From: Mobula hypostoma
Lineage: Eukaryota
NCBI RefSeq assembly: GCF_963921235.1
Contig: NC_086097.1
Span: 12,214,001 to 12,278,000, forward strand
Length of the DNA: 64,000 nt
Direction: 5' to 3'
Shown: positions 2,751-44,755 of the stretch, piece by piece
Layout of the letters: every line of letters begins with the position of its first letter
How positions within the stretch are numbered: position 1 is the first letter of the stretch
Position numbers and translations under genes: made by a program
The notes under the pieces: model-generated
What the model was told of the DNA's origin: nothing
The model's database searches: none
Seen by the model: only the letters and a program-made list of their open reading frames with translations

Positions 2751-3222
2751 CATGATTACATAGCTCTAATGACTGGGGAGAAACTTCTGGTCAAACTATT
2801 TCTGATGCATGGTCACTATTGAAATGAAGAGCACAAGGCATCTAATTTGCACACAGCAGGTTCCCTCAAATAACATTAAACCTATTAATTATTGTAAAGT
2901 CTAGATAGAGTGGGTGAAGAGAGGATATTTCTATAGTGGGGGAGTCTAAGACCAGAAGATTCAGCCTCGGAATCAGAGGATATCCATTTAGAACAGAGAA
3001 GAGGAGCAGTTTCTCTAACCAGATAGTCGTGAATCTGTGGAATTCATTGCCACAGACAGCTGTGGAGGTTAACTCCTTCTGTATACTTAAAGCAGAGGTT
3101 GATAGATTCTTGATGAGTCAGGGTGTCAAAAATTACAGGGAGAAGGCAGGAGAATGGGGTTGTAAAGGATAATAAGTCAGCCATGGTGGAATGGCAGAGC
3201 AGACTCAATGGGCTGAATCAGT

Positions 3223-3260
3223 TAGTCCTGACGAAGGGTCTCGGCCTGAAACGTCGACTG
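3223..3260 (+). ncRNA. Minimal type I hammerhead ribozyme motif (copy 1 of tandem pair)
   Basis: TAGTC CTGACGA(3228-3234) AGGGTCTCGGCCT GAAAC GTC(3253-3255) GACTG. Confidence 0.85.
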
Positions 3261-3631
3261 TACATCTTCCTAGAGATGCTGCCTGGCCTGCTGCGTTCAC
3301 CAGCAAATTTGATGTGTGTTGCTTGAATTTCCAGCATCTGCAGAATCCCTGTTGTTTGCGTTTTTAAATTCACTACTGCGAAGCCTCTTCCGGTGATGCC
3401 TACACCGAAGAAGTTTAGATCCTCTCTTCGACAGAAGTTCGGTGAAACCATCTCTCACTGCTCCCCATCTGTAATTTCTTCGGCTCTTCAACTTTTCGAC
3501 CACATTTTGACTCAGATTCGCTATCACAGCCAGCTCTTGGCTCCATCCCTCCCCTTCCTGTCTTCTCCTATCATTTTGGATCTCCCACTCCCCCTCCAAC
3601 TTTCAAATCTCTTACTCACTCTTCCTTCAGT

Positions 3632-3669
3632 TAGTCCTGACGAAGGGTCTCGGCCTGAAACGTCGACTG
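3632..3669 (+). ncRNA. Minimal type I hammerhead ribozyme motif (copy 2 of tandem pair)
   Basis: TAGTC CTGACGA(3637-3643) AGGGTCTCGGCCT GAAAC GTC(3662-3664) GACTG. Confidence 0.85.
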
Positions 3670-4854
3670 TACCTCTTCCTAGAGATGCTGCCTGGCCTGC
3701 TGCGTTCACCAGCAAATTTGATGTGTGTTGCTAATTCTGCTCCTATGTCTTAAGGTCTTATGGTATTGTGGCCTAATTATTATTGGAAAATAATATACTA
3801 GCATTGATTGTTAAATTAGTATTACCCAGGACAGTGAGGACAAATTCTTCTGTGACAACTGAGCAACACGATCACAGATCATATAGAACTCCCTCTGCCC
3901 TGTACTGGAGACACTACCTAATTATTGTAATCAGATCTCTGCAGTGGGATTTAATTCCACAACCTGATGACCGTCAGACTAAAGTATAACTGAATGAACC
4001 TTAGCTGACAGCTCATATGCCAAAAAAAAATTGTTTTACGGATGCGTTGTGACTGCATAAAGATGATTTGTATTTCATTTGCCTCTAATGAAAGGAGTTG
4101 CTTCCTTACCTTTGGGCTAGTCAAAATGTTCTTAGCCCAACAAATCATTTAGCATCAAGTTCCTACCTTTACAAAACTTGTAGAAAATGGGACAACTATT
4201 ACAGTGGCTTTGTCAATAATGTTAAGAGAATTCAAGTCGTCACCTTAATCTCCTTAGGAACTAGGGGTGTTGCTGTGACTTCTTGTTCAGGGAGGGAAGT
4301 CTCTGCCCAGTGATAATCTGCCGGTGGGAAGATTATAGTAATATTTCAATGGTGCCAATATAATTTGCTCAATCTGCTCAGTGGAGCTTCCAATGAAATA
4401 GTGACTTGTGCACTTACAGTGGATGGAGTATGGGCCAGTCTCTATGGTAACGGGGGAAGCATTCGTTGCAGATGCTGCCGTGCCTGTGGCTAGCCTGTAT
4501 ATTCCACTTTAATTGCCACTGGTGTTGTGAGATGCTGTATGGCAGGTTCTAAATCAACAGCCGTGGTGAGGAGATGGCCTGCAGCAAAGGTACAGAAACA
4601 GCAATTGATGCTCACATTAGGGGCTGTGCTGTGTATCCAGGTCAAATGGAGCAAGTAACAGGAGATACCAACAGTGAGAGGGAAATGGAGTAGAATAGTG
4701 TTTTACCTGCTGCCCTCACATCCAGTGATCCTGAGACACAATTTCACCCAACGGGGCATTTGAAACGTTAAACAAGTAAATCAAGAAGGTAGTACCAGTG
4801 CTTTAAACTACCAGTAAAGGTAAAGTGAGGTAAAGGCCACCCCCCCCCACACAC

Positions 4855-5040
4855 ACACCTTGTTTGGTGCAATGGGCAGCAATCTTGCCATTTCTTTTGT
4901 GTTTGCCTGTTATACGAGGACGATTTGCGAGCTCGACTCTCAACCCAGCACAGATGGAAAGCAAGCAAAGGAACTGGCTGGATTCGAACCCAGGACCATC
5001 TTGTTCCGAAGTCCAGGTGTGGATGCCACTACACTATCTG
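4855..5040 (-). mobile_element. tRNA-derived SINE (family shared with 58361-58556)
   Basis: Minus strand has A-box-like TAGTGTAGTGG, GGACTTCG, B box GGTTCGAATCC, and body TTTCCATCTGTGCTGGGTTGAG...ATGGCAAGATTGCTGCCCA also seen at 58440-58530. Confidence 0.65.
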
Positions 5041-5224
5041 TACGGACATAACTACCATAAAAATCTATCTGGTTCAAGGTAAGAATTTGCCCCCATTACT
5101 TTGTCCCATTTGTGACTCTAAACTGCTCCGCAGAGTCATAGGCCCCTTGACGAGTCAATGCTGACAAAGATAGCTGTCTGTGAAAAGACCTAGTAGATTA
5201 CCACTTCACAGAGCAATTACATTC

Positions 5225-5742
5225 CTTAGAATGTAGGAGTACGAGGGGAGATTTCATAGAGGTAGAAAAAATTATGAGTTCTATCAATAAATGCTTTTTT
5301 CCCTGAGGTTGAGTGAGATTAGAACTAGAGGCCATAGGTACATTTATTTCTAGGTGTAGTTATTTATTGAGATACAGCATGGAATGTGTTTTTTCCAGCC
5401 CTTCGAGCCATACTACCCATCAGTTCTCTGACAAATCCTAGCCTAATCACAGGACAATTTATGACCAATTAACCTACCAACTGGTATGTCTTAGGACTGA
5501 AACCAGAGGAGCCAGAGGAAACCCACATGGTCATGGGGAGAACGTACAAGCTCATCACAGGGTGGAAGATAAATTGTTTGAGGGGAACATGAGGGAGACT
5601 TCTTCACTCAGAGGGGTGAGAATGTGTAATGAGCTGCCAGAGCAAGCGGTGGACGTGGGTTTGATTTCAACGTTTCAGAAAACTTTGGATGGATACATGG
5701 ATGGAGGGGTATGGAGTGTTATGGTCTGGATGCAGGTGGATG
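5225..5742 (+). mobile_element. CR1 3' relic interrupted by a minus-strand V-SINE (about 5362-5560)
   Basis: CR1-like GAGGGGAGATTTCATAGAGGTA...TTCACTCAGAGGGGTGAGAATGTGTAATGAGCTGCCAG; SINE-like GAGGAAACCCACATGGTCATGGGGAGAACGTAC. Confidence 0.65.
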
Positions 5743-6000
5743 GGTTCATTCATTATGTGCCATGTCATATGATGTGGGCGATCATGGTCTTTCCATGACC
5801 ATGATTGTTCTTGGCATGTTTTTCTGCAGAAGTGGCTTAACATTGCCTTCTTATGGGCAGTGTCTTTACAAGATATGTGACCCCAGTCATTATCAATATG
5901 CTTAGAGATCGTCTGCCTGGTGTCAGTGGTCACGTAACCAGGACTTGTGATATGCAACAGCAGCTCATACGACCATCCACCACCTGCTCCCATGGCTTCA
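5743..6000 (-). mobile_element. About 400-bp non-autonomous repeat with RTE/BovA-like 3' end (partial copy)
   Basis: Minus strand GAAGGCAATG...CCACTTCTGCAGAAAAA..GCCAAGAACAATCATGG...GGCACATAATGAATGAA; six copies in the window. Confidence 0.7.
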
Positions 6001-6779
6001 GGCACACATCTTTCGCTACTAGAGCACAAAGGAATTTAAACTGCAAACAATAAGTTGTCATCGTTGGCATGTTAAGTATATTCTGTGATTATACATAATC
6101 ACATTTCCTTTACCTGTTTCTGATGTTGATGGTGTTGACAACGTGGAGTTGACAATGATTTGTCTGTAGACTTTAAAACTGGCTTGCTTATACTGATTTT
6201 ATTGAAGAAATTATTCAGTGCACACTTGTCACTAGCTAAAAAATTGCACAACACAAGACTTTTGCATGCACTAGATGTTACAAATTGGAGGGAACATTGG
6301 TTATGAGCCAAATGCGTCATTGGAGATAAAGACCAGACTTAATAAAGGCGGCAGATTGACATTAGGATTTGCTTGTGTTGTGGTTCAGATGTTTGTTCGG
6401 TCTGGTGGGGTTTGATGGCATTAATCTGATGTTGTTGGTGAACCTGTGAACCACCTAAAGTCAACAGTCAACTCAATGCCTAGAACTACAAAGGATCCAG
6501 ACTCAGTTGACACTTTTAAAACCAGCTCAAAGCCTATTTATTTAACCTTGCATTTAACTAACATCATTTTGTCTTTTATATTCATGTTTGTTTTATTTTT
6601 TTATTTTCACGTTTGTTCTTTCATTCCATTGTAAAGCATTCTGAACTACATCATCTGTATGAAAAGTGCTCGCTATATAAAATTATTATTGTAATTATTG
6701 TTATATTTTTACTTTTTTCAGCTCAAGCAGGTAAAACCTGAGGTATGGACATAGCTAAGCATTTCTCAATTGCTAGGAA

Positions 6780-7156
6780 CTTTCGGACTACTCTAGTGCT
6801 GTTTAGCTTCCTTCATTGCGCCATAGCTTCCTCTCAGTTTTCACTACTGTGAGTCATGCAAGTCCCGGGTGGAGTCTCAGGAATACTGTCGCACTCAGGT
6901 GTTGAAGGATTCTTTATTGATGTTTCCATAACAATTTTGTTTTACCAGTCAGGGTTGTTAACCCCGAGCTGAAACCCAAACCTTGAGGATCATTGGACTA
7001 CTCTTATTTTGGTCTCTGTCCTTTGATGGGCTTGGCATGGGTGACCCTACCAAGAGCCAAAGCATGAAGCACTAACTCCAGCCAACATGGCTCTTTGGGT
7101 CTTTGAAGCATGCAAGCCTCAAAACTCAATGATAAGGTTGTGGTCCTCTGGGAGGT
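6780..7156 (-). mobile_element. RTE-like 5' UTR-derived repeat (second copy at 33600-33925)
   Basis: Shared CAGTCATGCAA.TCCCGGGTGGAG.CTCAGGA...TAACAATTTTGTTTTACCA; minus-strand start GGACCACAACCTT resembles RTE/BovB 5' ends. Confidence 0.55.
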
Positions 7157-8394
7157 TTATGACTTAATTTTTCATTAATCTTTGTTAACCTATCTTTGCA
7201 GCTGCAGTTAATGTAATATCAGAAGAAAAGGAATAATTGCATTTATATGAACCCTTACAATAGAATTCTCAATGTCCTTTGCAACCAGTGCCATGCTTAT
7301 TCCAAGGAATAATCATTGTAATAACATTGGAAATATGGCATCTTATCTGTGCATAGCATAATCTGATATACCACATAAGATGTGATGTTCTAAGGTTGTT
7401 AACTGAGTGACAAGTACTGATCAGGAGAAAACCATTTTTTAGCCAATGTACCACACTAGAAATTTCAGGACAGTGAGCTTCCTATTTTATCTCTACATGT
7501 TCCTCATCATTGAGTATGTGATCAAGTGGCCTGTATTTACTTAAGACTGCTAATTACGATTTGAAAAATACACCATTACTCGTAATAAGTTGGACTATTA
7601 AGCTATTATTTTGCAGGGCACATGCTGAATGTGTTTTTGAATAAGAGTGGTAAATTAATTTAGCTCAACCTCGTAAATTGAAGATGACATCTCATTCAGG
7701 ACATAATGGGCTGCTCTGAGATTTTTTTCAGTTTAAGTAGACAGAAAAAATATGTTAATTTAGTCTAAATGACATTAACAACTGAGTCCTGATTTTGTGT
7801 AGATAGGATAACAGTATTTTACCAGCCCAGATCACAAAGACTGGAAAGAGATGACAGTTTCTGAAAAGAATGGGTTGTCCACCTCTGTGTCTCCATGCGG
7901 TCACTCAAAAGGGTTAGAATCAACTTAAAAAAGATGCTGAAATCTATGAACAGCTAATATTGTTATATCTATGCAGCAATTCATTGATTGTGTTTACAGT
8001 GCACTCTGTATATCAGGTTGTATTTCTCAGTAGCATGATCACTTTCTTCATGACTCGGATTTCCACCTTTTCAAGCTGATTAATTACTGAACTTCATTTT
8101 ATTTGATTATCTATTTATTTATTTATTGAGAGACAGCACAGAATAAACTAAATAAACTAATGAACTAAACAGAATAATCCTAGGCTATTTTAATGACTGC
8201 AGTACGAAGTTTCGTATTTTGTATTTTTCACTTGTTTTTTGCCATTTGTGCAATTTGTTTTTTTTTTGTGTGAGTGTCGGGTGTTTAATGTTTTCTTTGA
8301 GCAGGTTCCATGTATTTTTTTCGCGGCTGTCTCTGGGAAGACAAATCTTAGGAATGTATACTTCATACATACTTTGATAATAAATGAACTTTGA

Positions 8395-8680
8395 ACTTTG
8401 AATAGGCCTTTCCGGCCCTTCAAGCGATGCTGCCCAGCAAACTCCCAATTTAATCCTAGCCTAATTACGAGACAACTTACAAAGACCAATTAATGTAGCA
8501 ACTGGCATGTCTTTGGAAGGTGGGAGGAAACTGTGTCACCCAGAGGAAACCCGCACTTTTCATGGGGAGAACATACAGACTCCTTACAGACAGCGGTGGG
8601 AATTGAACCTGGGTTGCCTGCACAGTGAAATGTTGTGCTAAGGGCCCAATGTACACCACACTCCTAGCAAATATCACTAG
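8395..8680 (-). mobile_element. V-SINE, adjoining a LINE 3' end with (ACTTTGA)n tail at about 8190-8402
   Basis: Reverse complement of the V-domain (TCTTTGGAAGGTGGGAGGAAAC...GAGGAAACCCGCAC); AATAAATGAACTTTGAACTTTGA tail. Confidence 0.7.
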
Positions 8681-8809
8681 ACCAGGAGGTCAGTGGTAGG
8701 GTAAAGCATTGTACTAACCACTATGCTAGAGTGCCATCCCCTTCTACAATTTTCTACAATTCCTTTTACTTTTAATTTAGATTCAAAGCAAACTGAATTC
8801 AAGGAATTT

Positions 8810-9248
8810 GGGTGTCATGGCAGCAGAGCCGTTAGTGCAATGCTCAGGGCATTGGAGTTCGGAGTTCACTTTCGGCGTCTTCTTGGAGCCTCTGTACATC
8901 CTCCCTGTGGAATGCATGGGTATTCCCAAAGCGCTCCAGTTTCCTCCCACAGTCCAAAGACATACCAGGTAGATTAATTTAAAAACGCAAACATGAGGAA
9001 ATCTGCAGATGCTGGAATTTCAAGCAACACACATAAAAGTTGCCGCTGAACGCAGCAGGCCAGGCAGCATCTCTAGGAAGAGGTACAGTCGACATTTCGG
9101 GCCGAGACCCTTTGTCCTGACTAATTGGCCATTGTAAACAGCGCCGAAGTTAGGTTAGGGTTAAATTGTGATTATTGGGGGTTAGTGGGGCTGGTAGGAT
9201 CTATGGCTGGAAGGGCCTTCTCCATGCTGTATTGCTAAATAAGTAAAA
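8810..9248 (+). mobile_element. V-SINE interrupted by a minus-strand PLE pseudo-LTR piece (8981-9122) with a decayed HHR
   Basis: SINE ...CCCACAGTCCAAAGACATACCAGGTAGATTAATT | insert | CTAATTGGCCATTGTAAA; the insert is the reverse complement of the pLTR end. Confidence 0.8.
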
Positions 9249-9304
9249 AGTCTGGCCTAATTATGTAAATGGCATCAGACGGCATCTATGGGGAGAGAAT
9301 GTTT

Positions 9305-9598
9305 TATTTTATTCAGAGGTAGAGTGCAGAACAGGCCCTTCTGGCCGAGCTAACCACACCACACAGTATTCACCTATTTAACCCTAGCATAATCACAGGA
9401 CAATTTTCAATGATCCATTACCTCACTAACCGATGCGCCTTTGGACTGTGGGAGGAAATCGGAGCACCTGGAGGAAATCTACGCTGTCACAGGGAGAACG
9501 TTAAAAACTCCTTACAGACGGCACCAGAAATGTACGCTGAAGTCCAACGTCCCAAGCTATAATACTGTCGTGCTAACCACTTCACTACTGTGGTGCCC
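9305..9598 (-). mobile_element. V-SINE
   Basis: TTTGGACTGTGGGAGGAAATCGGAGCACCTGGAGGAAA is the reverse complement of the V-domain; tRNA-like head at about 9570-9598. Confidence 0.8.
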
Positions 9599-9957
9599 TA
9601 GAATAGTGTTTAGATCAATAACCAAACATCAGAACTGGAAAAAGAAAGAAATATTTTCAAATTTTAAGCAAAAATGAAGGCAGGGAAAAGGAGGGAGAGG
9701 GGATGAATAAGAGATATAATGGGAGGAGGCAAGAGGGATGGATTGACAAAGGGGCAATGGTGCAGGCTGAAAGACAATAGCAATTAGATGAGGAAAGATT
9801 TAATAGATGGGTGTTAACAAAAAATAGATATAATTGGGTATCAAAGAACATAAACTGCTTAGACTAAAGATGCTATACGTGACACAGCTCCTTCACTCAG
9901 CAATCAGGAGTATCTGTGGTTTTGAGAATGCAGACCCTTCCTCAGAACTCTATTTCT

Positions 9958-10336
9958 GATGTGCTGGCATTGGAGAAGGTCCAGAGGAGATTCATGAAAA
10001 TAATCCCAGGAGTAAAATGGGTTAGCATATGAGGAGTGTTTGCTGCCTCTGGGCCTGCATGTGCTGGAGATTAGGAGAATTTTGGGAGGGGAGGTGTCAT
10101 TGAAAACTATCGAATATTGAAAGGCCTAGATAGACTGGATGTGGAGAGGATGCTTCCTATAGTGGGGGAATCTAGGACCAGAGGATACAGCTTCAGATAC
10201 TAGAGATGTCCATCTAGAGTAGAGATGAGGAGGAATTTCTTTAGCCAGATGGTGGTGAATCTTTGGAATTCATGGCTACAGGCAGCTGTGGAGGACCTCA
10301 ATGGGTATATTTAAAGTGAAGGTTGATAGGTTCTTG
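9958..10336 (+). mobile_element. CR1 ORF2 C-terminal relic
   Basis: LEKVQRRF...GLDRLDVERMLP...RRNFFSQMVVNLWNS-like coding remnants. Confidence 0.75.
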
Positions 10337-11272
10337 CAGCACACACAAAATGCTGGATCTCAGAAGGCCGGGCAGCATCTATGGAAAAGAGCATAGTCGA
10401 CATTTCAGGCCGAGATCCTTCATCAGGACTGAAAGAAAAAAAGATGAGGCATAGGAACTAGAAGGTAAGAGGGAGGGGAGGAAGAAACACAAGGTGATAG
10501 CTGACCAGAGGAGGGGAGGGGTGAAGTAAAGAGCTGGGAAGTTGATTGGTGAAAGAGATAAAAGGCTGGAGAAGAGGAAATCTAATAGGAGAGGACAGAA
10601 GGCCATGGAAGAAAAAAATGGGGGAAGGGGACCAGATGGAGATGATGGGGAGGTAAGGAGATAGGGCGAGAGACAGAAAAGGGAATGGGGAATGGTGAAG
10701 GGGAGGCATTAACGAAAGTTCAAGAAATCAATGTTCATGCCATCAGGTTGGAGGCTACCCAGGCAGAATATGAGGTGTTGCTCCTCCACCCTGAGAGTGA
10801 CCTCATCACAGCAGTAGAGGTGGCCATGGACTGACATGTTGGAATGGGAATGGAGAGTGGAATTAAAAACAGTGGCCTCTGGGAGATCCCACTTCCTCTG
10901 AAGTACGGAGCATAGGTGCTTGGCAAAGTGGTCTCCCAACCTACGTTGGGTCTCACTGATATACAGGAGGCCGCACCAGGATAGAGTAGATGACTCCAAC
11001 AGACTCACAGATGAAGTGTCGCCTCACCGGGAGGGACTGTTTGGGGCCCTGAATTGTAGAGAGGGAGGAGGTGAGGGGCAGGTGTAGCACTTGATCCGCC
11101 TGCAAGGATAAATGCCAGGAGGGAGATCGGTGGGGAGAGACGAAGGGACAAGGGAGTCCTGATCCCTGTGGAAAGCAGAACGTGGGAAGAGGGGAGGAGG
11201 AAAAGATGTGCTTGGTGGTGGGATCCTGTTGGAGATGACTAAAGTTCCAGAGAATTATGTATTGGATGCAGA
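10337..11272 (-). mobile_element. Older PLE copy, 3' part (GIY-YIG plus pLTR with HHR at about 10395-10431); continues at 15610-15961 beyond the Copia insertion
   Basis: ORF 10709-11008 CGLLYISETQRRLGDHF...LQPDGMNIDFLNFR; colinear with 28227-29195; minus strand CAGTC CTGATGA AGGATCTCGGCCT GAAAT GTC GACT. Confidence 0.88.
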
Positions 11273-11968: not shown

Positions 11969-13877
11969 TCAGACATTGCCAGGGTTTCTCTTGCCAGCAT
12001 ACACCGTACAAATCTTTGGATCCTTCTTGATTGCCAATAGAGTGGTGCAAACCTTCCCTCTTTTCCCATCAGTACAATAAGAAGGTGTCCCCCTTGAGTA
12101 CCCCATCAGGAAGATTTCCAAGTCAAGCATCACTGAAGACAGCGAGCCTCAGTGAATTGTCTTTTCCAAGCTGTTGAAACTTCGAGACTACTTTTTCAGA
12201 TTGAATTCCGTGCACTACATTGTTTACCTCATGTAAAGTTTGTACTGCGGCATTTTTGTGCTGGATGCCAAGTTGCAGGCATCAAACATGATGTCAAGTC
12301 TACTCTGTCTTGCCACCCATAAAATTTGGCCTATCTTTGACCGAAGTTGCTCAGTTTCAACTTCACTGACAGGTGCATGCCGCTGTGTGGCACAAGAGGA
12401 TTCCATGTGGATGGTCTGAAGATTCCCGATGTAGCTTTCTTGGTGCAGTTGTACTGTTCCATCAACAGCAAGGAGGTCTACATAGTAGAATCATGTTCCT
12501 CCCCTCCAACCTGAACGGATGACTTTAGCTGAGGGATAACTGTTGTGGGAAAGTTTTGTGACCCTCCCCATATGAAGTCATTTACATGAGAGGCAAGAAT
12601 TCCAATCTCATGATATCCCGAATCTTGCCAGTAAAAATCAGCTGGATCCACTTGTGATCTTTCCACCTGTTTTCAACATTATCTCCTTGAGCTTTTTATA
12701 CCAGTAGAGTGATGCATACACACACTTTTGAGTTTCCACAGTGTTCCTTCATTTCTAACTTCAGCTGGGGGTGGGGGTGGGGGTAGTTAATAGAAGTGAC
12801 ACGTGATAGTTCCATTCCCTGTATGAATGCGGATTTTACGTCCATACAATGGGGTTGCTAATGCTTTTGACTTATCGTTGACAGAAGTAGTCGGAGAGAC
12901 CCTGACGAACATGCTGGTGAGTCTTTTCAGAGTTCTATGTTCAGTTTGTCGAAACCTCTAGCCACTCAACATGCTTTTGGTATAATTACTGGTCGGGATT
13001 CTTTCCGGGTGTTTACCCATCTTGAGGACACTGTCTTTTGGCCAATGTCCCTGCTTCCTCAAACACTCTATTATTTCTCCAACTTCTGATTTCATCCTGT
13101 TTTGCAGATTCAAATGACACCTCTTTAGTTACTAGGACACTTCATCTTGATACTTCTCAGAAGTTTCAGCCTGATCTATACTTGATTCAATATGAAGTCT
13201 GTCTACATTATGACATGTCGTCCGACCCTGCGGCACCAGTGACCGTGACTGGTTCTAGGTAATTCAACTTTTGTTTCTCCCAGTAGCTTTGCCTACTCAT
13301 CCTAAGGCTTCAGCTTTGCATAAGATACCAGAGTTTTGGTCCATAAATCTCACAGTTTGTCCTGTTTCAAGACTGAAACTTCCATGTTGTATTTGCAATA
13401 TAATTCCTGTTCAGGCAAGTCTGGTGTGTTCCCAACTGCAATCTCTTCAGCACTGTCTGTGCCACCATTGAGCAACTCTGGTGGGTCCTTAGCAGCACTC
13501 TCCTCATCCCTGTCTCTGCCGTGTGACCGGATGCTAGGTAAGTGCTTTTCATTTTTTGTCTCATTCTCTGTGGAGTTCTGAATGTCTTCCGTTTCTGCTT
13601 TACGTAACCTGGAATGATGCATTTTCACATATATACCTCCATGTTTCATGAACATCTCAACTCCATCCTGACCAATGACAACTCCAGGACCTTTCCATTC
13701 TGTATAGACTGCTCTTTTGTAATACACTTTGTCCTCTGTGTCATATTTGTCATTTGTAGGACGGACCTGTGCCCTCAGTGCTCTTCGACTTCTCTTTGAA
13801 CACTCTGCTTCAGTGAAAGCCTCCCTTGATACATGCAGTGCTGAAATATGTTTTCCAACCCACTCACTCCTTATAGT

Positions 13878-13971
13878 AACACGCACAACATGCTGGAGGA
13901 ACTCAGCAGGTCAGGCAGCATCCGTGGAAACGAACAGTCAACGTTTCAGGCCGAGATCCTTCGTCAGGACT
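13878..13971 (-). mobile_element. Solo ~95-bp PLE pseudo-LTR/HHR insertion (second subfamily) with 12-bp TSD
   Basis: ACTCCTTATAGT (13866-13877) and ACTCCTTGTAGT (13969-13980); minus strand AGTC CTGACGA AGGATCTCGGCCT GAAAC GTT GACTG. Confidence 0.82.
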
Positions 13972-15609: not shown

Positions 15610-16315
15610 GACAAGAGGAACCCTATCCCTGGTCGGGTGGTCAGAGGATGGAGTGAGGGCAGACATGCGCTCAATGGAAGAGATGCGGTTGAGGGCAGTA
15701 TTGATGGTAGAAGAGGAGAAGCCCCTTTCTTTGAAGAAGGAGGACATCTCCTTCATTCTGGAATGAAAAGCCTCATCCTCAGAGCAGATACAGTGGAGAT
15801 GGAGGAATTGAGAGACGGGGATGGTGTTTTTACAAATAACAGGGTGGGAAGAGGTATAGTCCAGATAGCTGTGAGGGCCAGTGGGTTTATGATTGACATC
15901 AGTCGATAAGCTGCCTCCAGAGATAGAGACAGAGAGATCGAGAAAGAGGAGGGAGGTGTCAGTGTGGCCTCCTGTATATCGGTGAGACCCAACGTAGGTT
16001 GGAAGACCACTTCACCAAGCACCTACACTCCATCCGCCAGAAAAACTGTGATCTCCCACTGGCCACCCATTTTAATTCCACTTCCCATTCCCATACCAAC
16101 ATGTCAATCCATGGCCACTTCAACTGTCACAATGAGGCCACACTCAGATTGGAGGAGCAACAACTTATATTCTGTTTGTGTAGTCTCCAAGCTGATGGCA
16201 TGAACATTGATTTCTCAAACTTCTGGTAATGATCTCCCCTGCACCCTTCTTCAGATGCTACCTGACCTGCTGAGTATTTCCAGCATCTTCTCTGTTAATT
16301 TCACAGTTCCAGCGT
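15610..16315. mobile_element. PLE remainder: RT-thumb region on minus (15610-15961) joined to an inverted GIY-YIG/3' segment on plus (15962-16315)
   Basis: 15610-15961 is colinear with 29217-29567; ORF 15999-16229 ...LEEQQLIFCLCSLQADGMNIDFSNFW on the + strand. Confidence 0.85.
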
Positions 16316-18442: not shown

Positions 18443-18825
18443 AACTACACCACTCTCTGCAGAGTCCTACGATTGAGGGAAGTATAGTTCCCATACCAGG
18501 CAGTGATGCAGCCAGTCAGGATGCTCTCAATTGTGCCCCTGTAGAAAGTCCTTAGGATTTGGGGATCCATACCAAACTTCCTCAACCGTCTGAGGTGAAA
18601 GAGGCGCTGTTGTGCCTTTTTCACCACACAGCTAGTATGTACAGACCACGTGAGATCCTTGGTGATGTTTATGCTGAGGAACTTAAAGCTGTTCACCCTC
18701 TCAACCCCATATCTATTGATGTCAATCGGAGTTAGCCTGTCTCCATTCCTCCTGTGGTCCACAACCAGCTCCTTTGTTTTTACGACATTGAGGGAGAGGT
18801 TATTTTCTTGACACCACTGTGTCAG
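18443..18825 (-). mobile_element. Rex1/Babar-type LINE RT C-terminal fragment
   Basis: VERVNSFKFL..ITKDLTWS.HT..VVKKAQQRLFHLRRLRKFGM..RTFYRGTIESILTGCITAWYG. Confidence 0.85.
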
Positions 18826-18984
18826 TTGAAATCAATGTCTTAATATATAAGAGCTAAATACATACTGAGGTTTAATAAATACAGAATAGACTCAGAAAGG
18901 TCCATAACAGACACAGCTCTCCCTGCCATTGAGGACATCCTCAAGAAATGGCATCCATCATTAACTGGGGGTAGAGTGGAGATA

Positions 18985-19340
18985 GGGGTGACAGGGTGGA
19001 GATATATCTCTGTCAAAGGAGATGGAAGGTGCTCCATCCTTCCGCTAGCCTGCAGGTCTTCCTTGGGCAAGGTGTAGCACCTGCTTAGCACTCCCGTCAG
19101 GGTTACATGATACCATGGGGGCAGGTGGTCCATATCGTAAGTTTTGGTTATGCGACCACTGACGCCAGGCAGACAAACTCTGAAGGGTGTTGATAATGGC
19201 TGGGTTCTCCCATCTTGTAACAACACTGTCCAGAGGAAGGCAATGAGAAACACTTCTGCAAAAAAAAATTTGCTAAGGACAGTCATGGTGATGGGAAGGC
19301 CATGATCTCCTACATCATACAATACAGCTCATAATGAACA
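18985..19340 (+). mobile_element. About 400-bp RTE-tailed non-autonomous repeat inserted in a Rex1 relic
   Basis: Reverse complement of the copies at 36015-36412 and 48640-49006. Confidence 0.75.
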
Positions 19341-19502
19341 AACTTTACAGGACAAGCCCTCTTCTCATTACTATCAATGGGGGGAGGTACAGGAGCCTGA
19401 AGATCTACACTCAACAATTCAGGAACAGCTTTTTCCCCTCTACCATCAGATTGTTGAATGGTCCATGAATGCTACCTTATTATTCCTTTCCTTTTGACAT
19501 TA

Positions 19503-20157
19503 GTGGATCTGGGGTTGAGAGGGTGAACAGCTTTAAGTTCCTCAGCATAAACATCACTGAGGAGCTCATGTGATCTCTACATACCGGCTGTGTGGTGAAA
19601 AAGGCACAACAGCACCTCTTTCACCTCAGACAGTTGAAAAACTTTGGTATGAGCCCCCAAATCCTAAGAACTTTCTACAGGGGCACAATTGAGAGCATCC
19701 TGACTGGCTGCATCACTGCCTGGTATGGGAACTGTACTTCCCTCAATAGCAGGACTCTGCAGAGAGTGGTGCAGACAGTCCAGCGCATCTGTAGATGTGA
19801 ACTTCCCACTATTAAGGACATTTACAAAGACAAGTGTGTAAAAAGGGCCCGAAGGAACATTAGGGATCCGAGTCCCCCAACCACAAACTGTTCCATCTGC
19901 TACCATCTGGGAAACCGTACCGCAGCATAAAAGCCAGGACCAACAGGCTCTGGGACAGCTTCTTCCACCAGGCCATCAGACTGATTAATTCATACTGATA
20001 CAGCTGTATTTCAATGTTATATTGACTATCCTGTTGTACATAATATTTATTATAAATTACTATAAATTGCACATTGCACATTTAGATGGAGACGTAGCGT
20101 AAAAATTTTTACTCCTCATGAATTTGAAGGATGTAAGTAATGAAGTCAATTCAATTC
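19503..20157 (+). mobile_element. Rex1/Babar-type LINE 3' end
   Basis: ORF 19592-19930 VKKAQQHLFHLRQLKNFGMSPQILRTFYRGTIESILTGCITAWYG, then RYRSIKARTNRL..SFFHQAIRL-like sequence and a (CAATT)n tail. Confidence 0.85.
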
Positions 20158-26590: not shown

Positions 26591-27497
26591 GTAATGCTTT
26601 TATATATTACACTGTACTGCAGCCACAAAAAAAAACAAACTTCATTACCCATGTGAGTGATGATATATCTGATTCTGATATGGGTCTCTGTTGTGGACTG
26701 AGAGTGGTAAGGGAGCAGTGAGAGGGGAACCATAGTTGGGAAAAGAGGAAAGGAGAGGGGAGAGAGTGGGGATCACGAGAGGGGCATTCTATAATGATCA
26801 AATTTAGTTAACTTGAGTGAGCTTGGCTTTGCATGTGATTTTTCTCCAAATCTCTTCCAAACTGTGATTTTTTTGACAAAAATTATTGTTGAGGGTTGGG
26901 CACTGGGTGTTCTGTACATGGGGTTTAGTAAAACATTTGATAAGGTCCCTCACAGTAGGCTGACACAGAATATTAAGTCACTTGGTGACTTGCTGATTGA
27001 TTGTGGAAGACAGGGTGGTGATGGAGAGGTGATTTTCTGACTGGAGGTCTCTGACCAGTGCTGTTCTTCAGGGATTAGTGTCTGTAACAAATATAAATAA
27101 TTTGGATGAAAACGTAGAGGTAATAGTGTAAATATTGGTGGAGTTATGTATAATGAGGTATGTTATCAGAAGAAACAGCAAGATGCAGATCAGTTGAACA
27201 TTTGCGTGGAGAAATGGCCGATGGTGTTTACCGTGGACGTGTGAGGGACTGCATTTTGCAAGGTCACATGCCAGAGGAGAGCATACAGTAAATGGCAGGA
27301 CAGGCCACCCAGAGAAGAATTTCAGAGTTGTATCCACTTGTGTTACCTCATTCAGAGGCCATAGCTCTCTGAATGAGGTAACACAAGTGGATAAAATAGT
27401 AAAGAAGACGCTGGCCTTCATTGGTCAGGGCACTGACTAGAAATGTTGTGACGTCATACTGTGTAAAGCATTTGTGAGGCCACAAATGGAATATCCT

Positions 27498-28013
27498 CAA
27501 ACACGAGGAAATCTGCAGATGCTGGAATTTCAAGCAACACACAAAAAAGTTGCTGGCAGCATCTAGTACAGTCGACGTTTCGGGCCGAGACCCTTCATCA
27601 GGACTAACTGAAAGAAGAGCTAGTAAGAGATTTCAAAGTGGGAGGGGGAGAAGGAGATCCAAAATGATAGGAGGAGACAGGAGGGGGAGGGATGGAGCCA
27701 AGAGCTGGACAGGTGATAGGCAAAAGGGATATGAAACGATCATGGGACAGGAGGCCCAGGGAGAAAGAAAAGGGGGGGGGTAGAAGCCCAGAGGATGGGC
27801 AAGAGGTATAATCAGAGGGACAGAGGGAGAAAAAAGAGAGCGAGAAAAAGAATGTGTGTATATAAATAATTAACGGACGGAGTACGAGGGGGAGGTAGGG
27901 CATTAGGTGAAGTTTGAGAAGTCAATGTTCATGCCATCAGGTTGGAGGCTACCCAGACGGAATATAAGGTGTTGTTCCTCCTACCTGAGTGTCGCTTCAT
28001 CTTTACAGTAGAG
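27498..28013 (-). mobile_element. 5'-truncated PLE (GIY-YIG tail, pLTR, intact HHR at 27569-27606) with 22-bp TSD
   Basis: GAGGCCACAAATGGAATATCCT at 27476-27497 and 28014-28035. Confidence 0.9.
27569..27606 (-). ncRNA. Minimal type I hammerhead ribozyme motif
   Basis: Minus strand TAGTC CTGATGA AGGGTCTCGGCCC GAAAC GTC GACTG: complete core and stems. Confidence 0.85.
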
Positions 28014-28226
28014 GAGGCCACAAATGGAATATCCTGTATGGTTCTGGTTGACACATTATTGGAAGGATGTAGTGACATTGGAGAGGGTGCAGAAGAGGTT
28101 CACCGGGATGTTGCCTGCATTGGAGTGTTTAAGAGTGTTTGGACAAAATAGGATTGTTTACTCTAGATCATCAGAGCCTGAGGGGTGACCTGATAGAAAT
28201 AAATAAAAACGTGAGAGGCACAGGTA

Positions 28227-31200
28227 ACACACATCAAAATTGCTGGTGAACGCAGCAGGCCAGGCAGCATCTCTAGGAAGAGGTACAGTTGACATTTCAG
28301 GCCGAGACCCTTCGTCAGGGCTAACTGAAGGAAGAGCTAGTAAGAGATTTGAAAGTGGGAGGGGAGGGGGAGATCCAAAATGATAGGAGAAGACAGGAGG
28401 GGGAGGGATGGAGCCAAGAGCTGGACAGGTGATAGGCAAAGGGGATATGAGAGGATCATGGGACAGGAGATCCAGGGAGAAAGAAAAGGGCGGGGGGGAC
28501 CCAGAGGATGGGCAAGGGGTATAGTCAGAGGGACAGAGGGAGAAAAAGGAGAGTGAGAGAAAGAACGTGTGTATAAAAATAAATAACGGATGGGACGAGG
28601 GGGAGGTGGGGCATTAGCGGAAGTTAGAGAAGTCAATGTTCATGCCATCAGGTTGGAGGCTACCCAGACGGAATAAAGGTGTTGTTCCTCCAACCTGAGT
28701 GTGACTTCATCTTTACAGTAGAGGAGGCCATGGATAGACATGTCAGAATGGGAATGGGATGTGGAATTAAAATGTGTGGCCACTGGGAGATCCTGCTTTC
28801 TCTGGCGGACAGAGCGTAGATGTTCAGCGAAACGATCTCCCAGTCTGCGTCGGGTCTCGCCAATATATAGAATGCCACATTGGGAGCACCGGACGCAGTA
28901 TATCACTCCAGTCGACTCACAGGTGAAGTGTCGCCTCACCTGGAAGGACTGTCTGGGGCCCTGAATGGTGTTGAGAGAGGAGGGGTAAGGGCATGTGTAG
29001 CACTTGTTCCACTTACAAGGATAAGTGCCAGGAGGGAGATCAGTGGGGAGGGATGGGGGTGACGAATGGACAAGGGAATCGCGTATGGAGCGATCCTCGC
29101 GGAAAGCGGGGGGGGGGGAAGGGAAAGATGTGCTTAGTGGTGGGATCCCGGTGGAGGTGGCGGAAGTTACGGAGAATAATATGTTGGACCCGGAGGCTGG
29201 TGGGGTGGTAGGTGAGGACCAGGGGTACCCTATTCCTAGTGGGGTGACGGGAGGATGGAGTGAGAGCAGATGTGCGTGAAATGGGGGAGATGCGTTTGAG
29301 AGCAGAGTTGATAGTGAAGGAAGAGAAGCCCCTTTCTTTAAAAAAGGAGGACACCTCCCTCGTCCTGGAATGAAAAGCCTCATCCTGAGAGCAGACGCAG
29401 CGGAGACGGAGGAATTGCGAGAAGGGGATGGCGTTTTTGCAAGAGACAGGGTGAGAAGAGGAATAGTCCAGATAGCTGTGAGAATCAGTAGGCTTATAGT
29501 AGACATCAGTGGATAAGCTGTCTCCAGAGACAGAGACAGAAAGATCTAGAAAGGGGAGGGAGGTGTCGGAAATGGACCAGGTAAACTTGAGGGCAGGGTG
29601 AAAGTTGGAGGCAAAGTTAATAAAGTCAACGAGCTCTGCATGCGTACAGGAAGCAGCGCCAATGCAGTCGTCGATGTAGCGAAGGAAAAGTGGGGGACAG
29701 ATACCAGAATAGGCACGGAACATAGATTGTTCCACAAACCCAACAAAAAGGCAGGCATAGCTAGGACCCATACGGGTGCCCATAGCTACACCTTTAGTTT
29801 GGAGGAAGTGGGAGGAGCCAAAGGAGAAATTATTAAGAGTAAGGACTAATTCCGCTAGACGGAGCAGAGTGGTGGTAGAGGGGAACTGATTAGGTCTGGA
29901 ATCCAAAAAGAAGCGTAGAGCTTTGAGACCTTCCTGATGGGGGATGGAAGTATATAGGGACTGGACATCCATGGTGAAAATAAAGCGGTGGGGGCCAGGG
30001 AACTTAAAATCATCAAAAAGTTTAAGAGCGTGAGAAGTGTCACGAACATAGGTAGGAAGGGATTGAACAAGGGGGCATAAAACCATGTCGAAGTATGCAG
30101 AAAGGAGTTCGGTGGGGCAGGAGCAAGCTGAGACAATAGGTCTGCCAGGACAGGCAGGTTTGTGGATCTTGGGTAAGAGGTAGAAACAGGAAGTGTCGGG
30201 TGTGGGAACAATAAGGTTGGTAGCAGTGGATGGGAGATCCCCTGAGTGGATAAAGTCGGTGATGGTGTGGGAGACAATGGCCTGGTGCTCCTTAGTGGGA
30301 TCACGATTGAGGGGTAAATAAGAGGAGTTATCCACGAGTTGTCGCTGTGCCTCGGCAAGGTAGAGGTCAGTACACCAGACTACAACAGCACCCCCCTTAT
30401 CGGCGGGCGGGTTTAATAGTAAGGTTAGGATTAGTGCGGAGGGAGTGGAGAGCAGAGCATTCCGAAGGAGTGAGGTTGACATGGGAACAAGGTGTGGTGA
30501 AGTTGAGACGGTTGATGTCCTGTCGGCAGTTAGCGATAAAGAGATCCAGAGCAGGCAGAAGACCAGAGCAGGGTGTCCATGAAGAAGAGGAGGGTTGAAG
30601 ATGGGAGAAGGGGTCATCGGTGGGGGTGGAAGAGTCCTTGCCGAAGAAGTAGGCTCGGAGACGGAGACGGCGGAAGAAGAGTTCCGCATCATGGTGAACA
30701 CGGAACTCGCTGAGGTGTGGGCGAAGGGGGACAAAGGTGAGGCCCTTACTGAGGACAGAGCGCTCTGCCTCCGACAGTTGAAGGTCGGAGGGGATGGTAA
30801 AGACCCAGCACGGATGAGAGCTGGGATCAGAGGGGGGAGGGGGGAGGCTAGGGGTGTCAGTGGAGAGGGGAGGGTTGGGGTGAGAGAAAGATGGAGCCTC
30901 TGAGGGCCCAGGAGTTGACGGTGGGATCTGAGGAAGACGGGGCTGCGGAGTGGTGGTGGGGGAAGGGGAGACGGGAGTCACAATAGCAGCACATGAAGAC
31001 CCGGCCTGGAGTTCAAGGCTGGAGTCGCAGTTGGTGGTTGTGCAATCACTTTGAAGGTGTCCATGGTCGTTGCTGGAGTCCGGGTTTTGAATATGCCCTG
31101 AGGTGTTGGAGCCGGCGAGATCACTGGCAGAGGCAATCTGAAGTTCATGCCTGCTAGTTTCAGGGCCAGCAGGTTCTGTAGTCCGCAGATGTAGGATCTT

Positions 31201-31309
31201 GCAATCTTTGCCTAACATGACAAAGTCAAAAAAACGGCGATTGCAGGCGTGGATCCGACGGAGGATGAAATATCGGGTAGGACCATTACAGACGGCGAAG
31301 AAAGTGTAC
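28227..31309 (-). mobile_element. Penelope-like retroelement (Neptune-type), 5'-truncated, near-intact, 10-bp TSD
   Basis: GGCACAGGTA at 28217-28226 and 31310-31319; RT and GIY-YIG motifs; 3' pLTR with HHR variant at 28286-28323 (CTGACGA...GAAATGTC). Confidence 0.95.
28614..31309 (-). pseudogene. PLE polyprotein (Pro/Ser-rich N-terminal region, RT, Cys linker, GIY-YIG endonuclease), three frameshifts
   Basis: LSKGLTFVP; IKP|ADKGG; FYLLPKIHKP..PGRPIVS; TMDVQSLYTSIP; QTKGVAMGTRMGPSYA; RYIDD; FLDL; CKWNKCYTC; VIYCVRCSQCGILYIGET. Shifts: 4-bp duplication near 30405, G-run near 29108-29118, 1-bp deletion near 28676. Confidence 0.93.
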
Positions 31310-31394
31310 GGCACAGGTACAGTTGATTTAGTCACAGCCTTTTTTCCCCAAGATTAAAATGGCAAATAATCAAGGGTGCAGTCTTAAGATAACT

Positions 31395-42666: not shown

Positions 42667-42804
42667 TACCCTGCCAGGTCTACCATGTTGAGAATGCTTC
42701 CTTCATCCCTTTATTACTGGTTCCGCTTATCACCTTCCCTGCTAATCAAATTCCAACATCTGCATCCTCTTAGGCCTCCACAATCACCTTCCAGCCCCTG
42801 GACG

Positions 42805-44755
42805 CACCTGCCTATCCCACACTCCACTGGCCCTACCTGCCTCTATCCCACACTCCACTGGCCCTACCTGCTTCTATTCCACGCTACACTGGCCCCACCT
42901 GCCTATCCCACACTCCACTGGCCCCACCTGCCTCTATTCCACACTCCACTGGCCCCACCTGCCTCTATCCCACATGCCACTGGCTCCACCTGTCTCTATC
43001 CCACACTCCACTGGCCCTACCTGCCTATCCCACACTCTACTGGCCCTACCTGTCTCTATCCCATACCTCACTGGCCCCATTTGTCTCTATCCCACAGTCT
43101 ACTGGCCACACCTGTCTCTATCCTATACTCCACTGGACCCACCTGCCTCTATCCCACACTCCACTGGCCCCACCTTTTCTATCCCACACTCCACTGGCCA
43201 CACCTGCCTCTATCCCACACTCCACTGGCCCCACCTTTTCTATCCCACACTCCACTGGCCCTATCTGCCTCTACCCCACACTCCACTGGACCCACCTGCC
43301 TCTATCCCACACTCCACTGGCCCCACCTTTTCTATCCCACACTCCACTGGCCCTATCTGCCTCTACCCCACACTCCACTGGACCCACCTGCCTCTAACCC
43401 ACACTCCACTGGCCACATCTGCCTCTATCCCACACTCCACTGGCCCCACCTTTTCTATCCCACACTCCACTGGCCCTATCTGCCTCTACCCCACACTCCA
43501 CTGGCCCTACCTGCCTCTATCCCACACTCCAATGGCCACACCTGTCTTTATTCCACACTCCACTGGCCCTACCTGCCTCTATCCCACACTCCACTGGCCC
43601 TACCTGCCTCTATCCCACATTCCACTGGCCCAACCTGTCTCTATCCCACACTCCACTGGCCCCACCTGCCTCTATTCCACACTCCACTGGCCCTACCTGC
43701 CTCTATCCCACACTCCACTGGCCCTACCTGCCTCTATCCCACACTCCACTGGCCCAACCTGCCTCTATCCCACATTCCACTGGCCCAACCTGTCTCTATC
43801 TCACACTCCACTGGCCACACCTGCCTCTATCCCACACTCCACTGGCCCCACCTGTCTCTATCCCACACTCCACTGGCCCCACCTGTCTCTATCCCACACT
43901 CCACTGGCCCCACCTGTCTCTATCCCACACTCCACTGGCCCCACCTGTCTCTATCCCACACTCTACTGGCCTGACCTGCCTCTATCCCACACTCCACTGG
44001 CCCCACCTGCCTCTATCTCACACTCCACTGGCCACACCTGCCTCTATCCCACACTCCACTGGCCATACCTTCCTCTATCCCACACTCTACTGGCCTCACC
44101 TGCCTATCCCACACTCCACTGGCCACACCTGCCTCTATCCCACACACCACTGGCCACACCTGTCTCTATCCAACACTCCACTGGCCCCCACTTCCCTCTA
44201 TCACACACTCCACTGTCCCCTCCTGACTCAGCCACAGACTCCACTGGCCCTGTCACCCTCTACCCCAAACTCCACTGGCCTCTCCTCCCTCTGACTCAAA
44301 CTCCACTGGCCCCACCTGCTTACCCCACAATCCTGTGGCCCCACCTGCCACTATCACAGACTGTACCGGACCCACCTGCCTCTGCCCACACTCCACTGGG
44401 CCCTCCACCCTCTATCGCACATTCCACACTCCACTGCCCCCTCCTGCCTCAGTCTCACAATCCACTGGCCCCATCTCCCTCTACCCCAAATTCACTGGCC
44501 CTACATTCTTCTATCCCACATTCCACTGGCTCCATTTCCTTCTGACTCAAACTCCAGTGGCTCCTGCTCCCTCTGCCCCAAATTCCACTGGCCCTTCCTG
44601 CCAGTATGCCAATGTCCACTCGTCCCAACTTCCTCTATCCCACACCGCACTGCCCCCACCTCCCTCTGTCCCACACTCCACTGGCCACCCTCCATGTATC
44701 CCACATTCTACTGGCCCCTCTTCCCTCTATCACACATCACACACTCCACTGGCCC
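42805..44755 (+). repeat. Minisatellite, 31-bp consensus CCTGCCTCTATCCCACACTCCACTGGCCCCA, about 60 units
   Basis: Period 31 is visible directly (for example 43820-43960); 30- and 27-bp variants; degenerates after about 44170. Confidence 0.97.

Follow-up and report, generated by a model that had tools for sequence, protein, structure and literature searches.

Layout of the insert and its flanks

The window, by which we mean the whole stretch of 64,000 nucleotides of Mobula hypostoma DNA that was analysed, carries near its left end a 514-bp insert within a high-copy host repeat, which we take to be a LINE-type 3′ end. The insert consists, in this order, of a pLTR stub with a hammerhead, a tail and 5′UTR, codons 1–46 of a PLE polyprotein, a jump, a pLTR with a second hammerhead and a 68-nt tail (Table 1). 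With a direct repeat of 106 nt at its ends and 68 nt beyond cut site B it shows the structure of a partial tandem with direct pLTRs and a 3′ tail.

Table 1 Features of the insert, its flanks and the related PLE copy (positions of the window)
Feature	Position	Strand	Evidence
Left flank, high-copy host repeat, interrupted by the insertion	3100–3218	+	Matching copies in the window, near 32.4 and 57.1 kb
Upstream pLTR stub (38 nt), up to predicted cut site A after 3255	3218–3255	+	Family pLTR match from 3218
Minimal type I hammerhead motif A	3223–3260	+	Sequence, motif scan, folding; activity predicted
Rest of terminal repeat, "tail", putative PLE 5′UTR	3256–3395	+	Window copies match to 3370; contigs of other copies
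Codons 1–46 of PLE polyprotein (N-terminal domain)	3396–3533	+	phmmer homologues
Internal deletion junction, probable 3-nt microhomology	3530–3532	+	pLTR match starts at 3530
3′ part of downstream pLTR, 68 nt past cut site B	3530–3732	+	Window copies
Motif B, a minimal type I hammerhead with the same sequence as A; cleavage predicted after 3664	3632–3669	+	Motif scan, folding
Right flank, same host repeat continuing	3731–3764	+	Contig joints, paralogues
Related 5′-truncated, frame-broken PLE copy with RT, CX4CxxC linker, GIY-YIG and a pLTR with degenerate hammerhead	28226–31309	−	Pfam, motifs, frames

Loose contig ends behind 3218 lead into uninterrupted host repeat in 52–572 contigs per run. 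The insert lacks a target-site duplication, and comparison with the paralogues suggests that about 3 nt of target were lost relative to other copies of the host repeat. Contig joints running from 3218 to 3731 were considered as an empty allele and rejected; their source is paralogous host repeats.

The stub begins 10 nt before core position C3; two short copies elsewhere in the window (9127 and 11969) have nearly the same start, 8–10 nt before C3. The completeness of the first hammerhead motif is thus explained by a 5′ end at a start point common to other short copies. At the other side of the coding part, 3530–3732 is 92–95% identical to window copies at 520–709, 27566–27708 and 28226–28424. 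A jump back into the pLTR near 3530 had been seen in an earlier, sequence-only reading of this DNA and can now be placed exactly, as the pLTR match resumes at 3530 in all three longer window copies. All six protein homologues (see below) have His at the position where the frame of the insert turns to Gln, and for this reason the three nucleotides 3530–3532 would fit both sides of the junction. We estimate that about 3.1 kb of the parent PLE is missing at this point. In agreement with the sequence-only reading, RT and endonuclease are absent from the insert, and the 112-aa frame that it contains has no Pfam match.

Hammerhead motifs

A motif scan of the window detected the two hammerhead cores (CTGACGA…GAAAC-GTC) in direct orientation, with C3 at 3228 and 3637 and with GTC triplets ending at 3255 and 3664, which corresponds to a spacing of 409 nt. 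They are part of the 106-nt direct repeat (3218–3323 and 3627–3732), whose single mismatch (3264 A vs. 3673 C) lies outside the core. Two direct minimal type I motifs at this distance, as proposed earlier, are therefore real. In motif A stem I pairs 3223–3227 with 3256–3260 (5 bp), the core extends from 3228 to 3234 and is followed by an extra A at 3235, stem II pairs 3236–3239 with 3244–3247 (4 bp with a G-U closing pair) and is followed by GAAA, stem III is the loopless palindrome ACGT at 3251–3254, and C17 is position 3255. Both motifs show the conserved core, the extra base after A9 and the palindromic, loopless helix III of PLE minimal hammerheads. The two motifs can be arranged in a nested fold in which their ACGT sequences pair with each other, as the earlier reading had suggested. 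Lunse et al. are said to have worked on such PLE hammerhead dimers.

The base pair G10.1-C11.1, described as highly conserved in PLE minimal hammerheads (Cervera and De la Pena 2014, PMC4209133), is G-U in motifs A and B. Thus, the description of both hammerheads as intact applies to the cores, which are complete, but not to position 11.1, where U replaces the conserved C. Among the eight motifs of the family in the window, position 11.1 is U in six and C in two.

A relaxed core pattern matched 11 times in the window, and since eight of these matches, including 3228 and 3637, come from one repeat family, a chance origin of the motif can be discounted. Core and palindrome are both kept in half of the eight family motifs (621, 3228, 3637, 27601). 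Rfam returned no match at the gathering threshold and four chance matches at E ≤ 10, none of them a hammerhead. As Rfam has no matching model, the hammerhead call relies on the description of minimal HHRs in PMC4209133.

Alternatively, the two motifs could stem from separate, stacked PLE insertions into one site, one a 5′-end fragment and the other a solo pLTR end. PLEs tend to insert beside PLEs, and elsewhere in the window a spacing of 717 nt between two motifs (27601 and 28318) did arise by independent insertion. Nevertheless, the two repeats of the insert differ from each other at only 1 of 97 sites, whereas either of them differs from four other copies at 4–11, and a minority letter at 3307/3716 is common to both. 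These shared alleles largely refute stacking. In addition, neither host sequence nor a duplication is found at 3530, and a fragment reaching from the pLTR to codon 46 is not a normal 5′-truncated product, so that we regard this origin as highly improbable.

The middle segment and the parent element

The segment 3357–3530 had been described as about 170 nt of unique sequence. This applies to the window only; elsewhere the segment occurs in many copies and belongs to the same PLE. In two DNA runs, one for each of two related organisms, the summed contig depth of 3394–3504 was ~1e5 to 3.6e5 compared to 13–35 in the single-copy flank, a ratio of 2,800–10,400; such a sum does not translate into copy number. 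The depth of the middle segment is about 2% of the pLTR depth. Contigs of other copies join the pLTR tail to the middle segment (3315–3428, 3353–3470, 3355–3468) with a divergence of 8–13%.

The 46 codons starting with the ATG at 3396 align with the first 41–45 residues of homologues in six of nine phmmer matches, with 53–62% identity. All six are shark proteins, from four genera, and each of the three that were compared with the pre-RT frame of the PLE copy in the window (30400–31353) matches it as well (E 1e-8, 2e-9 and 7e-38). The remaining three matches (P0001, P0002, P0005), short internal stretches of tandem-repeat proteins, were dropped as chance. Word-indexed protein searches with the 46-aa peptide and with the pre-RT frame were negative, in contrast to phmmer. 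The alignments and the contigs that join tail and ORF start support the view that the middle segment represents the 5′UTR and the first 46 codons of the parent PLE itself, with the N-terminus of a shark-type PLE protein, and they bear out the earlier description of the insert as a PLE deletion derivative.

The open frame that starts at the same ATG was expected to cross the junction of a predicted circle with 112 aa. This number belongs to the linear frame, whose stop is formed at the join of element and flank; in a 409-nt circle the frame would have 126 aa. Neither version was retained as a gene, since the frame is a chimera of codons 1–46 and pLTR read-through without a Pfam match. A second pLTR copy likewise has this frame open, with 0 stops in 28226–28420.

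The related copy at 28226–31309 matches RVT_1 (E 2e-5) and GIY-YIG (E 9e-4) in Pfam, both under the curated cut-offs, and contains the DKG, YIDD and linker motifs. The linker, CKWNKCYTC in frame 28640–29545, has the CX2-5CxxC form that marks Neptune/Nematis PLEs (Craig et al. 2021, PMC8557442); the assignment to this type is by the linker motif only. The copy starts near codon 120 of the shark homologues and is split over three frames. It had been put forward as the autonomous family that mobilises the insert. It does reveal that family, but being 5′-truncated and frame-broken it is not autonomous itself. That the family of the insert encodes RT and GIY-YIG is indicated by the 92–95% identity of the terminal parts to the window copy and by the shark N-terminal homologues common to both.

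Other insertions of the family and further repeats were noted in the window. The 3.1-kb truncated PLE is flanked by a 9-nt direct repeat (28217–28225 and 31310–31318), recognised by eye and likely a target-site duplication, which the 514-bp insert does not have. A solo pLTR-end insertion with an internally shortened tail (27498–28013, minus strand) lies between identical 22-nt direct repeats (27476–27497 and 28014–28035), likely a long target-site duplication; by this independent insertion its intact hammerhead came to lie 717 nt from the degenerate one. Positions 1–732 hold a compound PLE insertion, in which a pLTR tail runs off the start of the window and an apparent short inverted tail piece (near 62–90) is followed by an element 3′ end with internally shortened tail and the best-preserved hammerhead of the window (621, C11.1). 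Older PLE-related fragments with 71–85% identity to the main family are located at 10336–11266, 13876–13971 and 15610–16231, two of them with variant hammerheads. Furthermore, an inverted repeat of 286 nt (18445–19774; arms 91% complementary and 758 nt apart) is a possible non-autonomous DNA transposon, and a minisatellite of about 2 kb with 31-nt units (42750–44700) yields long low-complexity open frames.

Abundance of the deletion junction

With three mismatches allowed, the ORF-to-pLTR junction occurs once in the 64-kb window, and each DNA run has about 200 contigs in which 3530 is preceded by ordinary pLTR sequence. The letters of the locus at 3435, 3441 and 3517 account for at most 0.15–0.46% of depth in the two DNA runs, equal to 5–13 single-copy equivalents among thousands, and the locus allele 13 nt from the junction for at most 0.21% and 0.35%. 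This depth excludes a large family of the locus haplotype, unless the changes arose after insertion.

Searches with the exact 20-nt junction gave no match in viral and none in metagenome contigs, which is uninformative for a vertebrate repeat, and none of 596 pattern matches was confirmed in a metagenome search for related loci. In two presumed-RNA contig sets, which contain other copies of the family, the locus letter at 3517 had a depth of 0 of 530 and 0 of 153, and the unique right flank (3801–3911) was uncovered. As contigs drop rare variants, this result is no evidence on expression. A sigma-70 promoter scan was set aside as irrelevant to a vertebrate.

A single difference in 106 sites separates the repeats of the insert. 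In the unique part, by contrast, about 12 of 303 positions depart from the family majority among the listed variants (Fisher p 0.019), hinting that the template had already diverged before it was copied. In that case the insert could be a copy of the second generation within a small lineage of non-autonomous PLEs: the deletion would be older, and the mini-element would have been mobilised again in trans, from tandem read-through RNA that did not have to be cleaved. The near-identical repeats next to a more diverged unique part fit such a history, as does the observation that all four listed coding differences change the residue, one of them at a Thr common to all six shark homologues. The likely cis-signals, namely the end of the pLTR, the hammerhead, the tail and the start of the ORF, are still present in the mini-element, in a region analogous to the minimal RNA described for an Anolis PLE (first 172 nt of the ORF, internal RT start; PMC11167929). 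Moreover, pLTRs are reported to suffice in trans in rotifers (PMC3846280), and putative non-autonomous PLEs have been described (PMC8557442). Nevertheless, the ~12 differences include common subfamily alleles (3598 and 3617, at up to 25–47% of depth), and with only the three rare alleles the contrast in divergence vanishes (P 0.12, listed variants), at a locus chosen for its matching motifs. The 5–13 single-copy equivalents that the rare alleles allow could be reached by independent mutation among thousands of copies, and the window holds a single junction. A small lineage is therefore unlikely, though not negligible.

Folding of the 409-nt unit

Non-LTR retrozymes are described as units of ~170–400 nt with less than 50% GC (PMC7229834). 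The monomer of the insert is marginally longer (409 nt), has 48% GC and contains neither RT nor endonuclease. It is bounded by two complete hammerhead motifs, but the insert comprises 1.26 units only (514/409 nt). The circular minimum free energy of −82.4 does not differ markedly from that of 60 shuffles (−77.7 ± 4.2, z −1.1), 52% of the bases are paired, and no ribozyme is formed in this structure, so that a stable self-paired circle with a free HHR was not found. The fold with both motifs as a paired ribozyme is topologically possible and has no broken pair, but lies 23.5 kcal/mol above the minimum. In a nearest-neighbour calculation the hammerhead junction was penalised by 13.8–27.3 kcal/mol in all six family copies tested; as every copy carries this penalty, the argument from folding against a paired ribozyme is weak. 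The core of motif B is held in a modelled competing hairpin with the upstream pLTR, giving a pair probability for stems I and II of <0.005 vs. ~0.3 for motif A. With C at core position 7, the isolated motif is predicted, in four of six copies tested, to form an inactive rod in which the core GACG pairs with the CGUC of the cleavage strand; this modelled rod is possibly a built-in off state of the hammerhead.

A working non-LTR retrozyme would cleave itself by paired hammerheads, ligate the 409-nt circle and give rise to the 1.26-unit insert by rolling-circle reverse transcription. Two complete cores in direct orientation and a paired fold without broken pair are what such an element should have, length and GC content lie at the limits of what has been reported (PMC7229834), the inserted sequence exceeds one unit and includes the cut site twice, and one chondrichthyan is reported to have PLE-derived retrozymes with a mean of 363 bp (Li et al. 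2026, bioRxiv 10.64898/2026.07.22.740005). However, the same terminal redundancy is expected of any partial-tandem PLE, an array is absent at 1.26 units, and the circle is no more folded than its shuffles. The G-U at 10.1-11.1 also speaks against a retrozyme, as do the poor in vitro cleavage reported for PLE minimal HHR dimers (PMC4209133) and the lack of cleavage reported for eight of nine Xenopus dimer elements (bioRxiv 10.64898/2026.07.22.740005). Furthermore, nearly all of the upstream pLTR, the site of PLE transcription start, is missing. A working retrozyme is consequently very unlikely. The suggestion that the locus already belongs to a circRNA-producing retrozyme family found no support, given the 1.26 units, the unremarkable circle fold, the disfavoured paired fold, the single junction in the window and the rare locus allele.

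That the insert is on its way to such a family, the other half of the suggestion, keeps a small probability, as the likely cis-signals are retained. A retrozyme at its birth in a cartilaginous fish would be a related case. Here, the microhomology jump would have shrunk a PLE unit of ~3.5 kb to 409 nt with both hammerheads and the RT-loading region, and the product would have been re-mobilised in trans at least once and cut and circularised on read-through. We consider this quite unlikely. If true, it would establish a PLE-to-retrozyme route by internal deletion instead of local amplification of a solo pLTR.

Proposed origin of the insert

The insert is probably a copy of a high-copy EN+ PLE in the usual partial-tandem layout from which an estimated 3.1 kb, reaching from codon 46 to the downstream pLTR, has been lost, and likely a one-off, dead insertion. 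The two hammerheads would then owe their closeness solely to the loss of the coding part that once separated them. A layout with partial tandems and tails is described as standard for PLEs (PMC8557442), and both junctions at microhomology without target-site duplication and copies disabled by microhomology-mediated internal deletions have been reported for them (PMC3846280).

RT and endonuclease of the family would be supplied in trans. Reverse transcription may begin in the tail of an uncut tandem PLE RNA, or of a re-ligated unit-length circular one, and 203 nt would be copied before RT jumps at the 3-nt microhomology to codon 46. From there it would run through the 5′UTR and the upstream hammerhead and stop at the favoured truncation point of the family just outside the ribozyme. 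Alternatively, the same product could arise by a microhomology-mediated deletion of DNA after insertion; we infer a slight preference for the jump of RT. Both cut sites lie within the insert, which therefore reflects a template that was uncut or had been re-ligated and is no record of cleavage. This agrees with in vitro work on an Anolis PLE, in which unprocessed RNA was used, RT started inside the RNA and HHR cleavage was not needed, and whose hammerhead is reported to cut only with protein (PMC11167929). PLE transcription starts in the upstream pLTR. Nearly all of this pLTR is missing at the locus, and both motifs would thus be transcribed only by read-through.

Comparison with known systems

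The insert resembles EN+ PLEs of the Neptune/Nematis type in its order of pLTR, ORF start, pLTR and tail and in a parent with RT, CX4CxxC linker and GIY-YIG (Craig et al. 2021, PMC8557442), and EN+ PLEs in general in the junction without target-site duplication and the microhomology-mediated internal deletion (Arkhipova et al. 2013, PMC3846280). Unlike these elements it is devoid of almost the whole ORF, and its hammerheads are 409 nt apart instead of an estimated ~3.5 kb. A literature search found no description of this PLE family, and none of the papers listed for shark and skate retrozymes names a retrozyme, which is weak evidence of absence. The chondrichthyan retrozyme families in the supplement of the 2026 preprint may include the unit. 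Being likely a one-off deleted copy, the insert matters little in itself, and such PLE copies have already been described.

With the minimal HHRs of metazoan PLEs the motifs share the core, the extra nucleotide between 9 and 10.1, the loopless palindromic 15.2-16.2, the 5-bp stem I and the presence in both terminal repeats (Cervera and De la Pena 2014, PMC4209133). They differ in the G-U that replaces G10.1-C11.1 and in a stem II of 4 bp vs. 7–8 bp reported for schistosomes (PMC4209133). The insert offers a natural, compact two-hammerhead substrate on which a possible intramolecular paired cleavage by vertebrate PLE minimal hammerheads could be examined, which gives it a modest value.

As in the Anolis Poseidon PLE PAc, whose copies are described to end internally downstream of the HHR in a tail and whose uncut RNA serves as template (Frangieh et al. 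2024, PMC11167929), the insert ends past a cut site. The start codon of PAc is located within the HHR, whereas that of the insert follows 141 nt past the cut site, and the insert ends 68 nt past the cut, before the ORF (PMC11167929 for PAc).

Metazoan non-LTR retrozymes are likewise described with a type I HHR at each end, a unit of a few hundred nt with less than 50% GC, no RT or endonuclease and an origin from PLEs (PMC7229834; Li et al. 2026, bioRxiv 10.64898/2026.07.22.740005). In contrast to their canonical HHRs and arrays, the insert has minimal HHRs and 1.26 units, its monomer is weakly folded, and PLE coding sequence is kept (PMC7229834 for retrozymes). The PLE origin of animal retrozymes is already contained in the preprint, which gives an average of 363 bp for chondrichthyan retrozymes with one species sampled and, as presented there, argues for the link from co-occurrence and pLTR trees (bioRxiv 10.64898/2026.07.22.740005). 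Should the junction turn out to be multi-copy or a circle be found, the insert would be a concrete intermediate between a PLE and a retrozyme.
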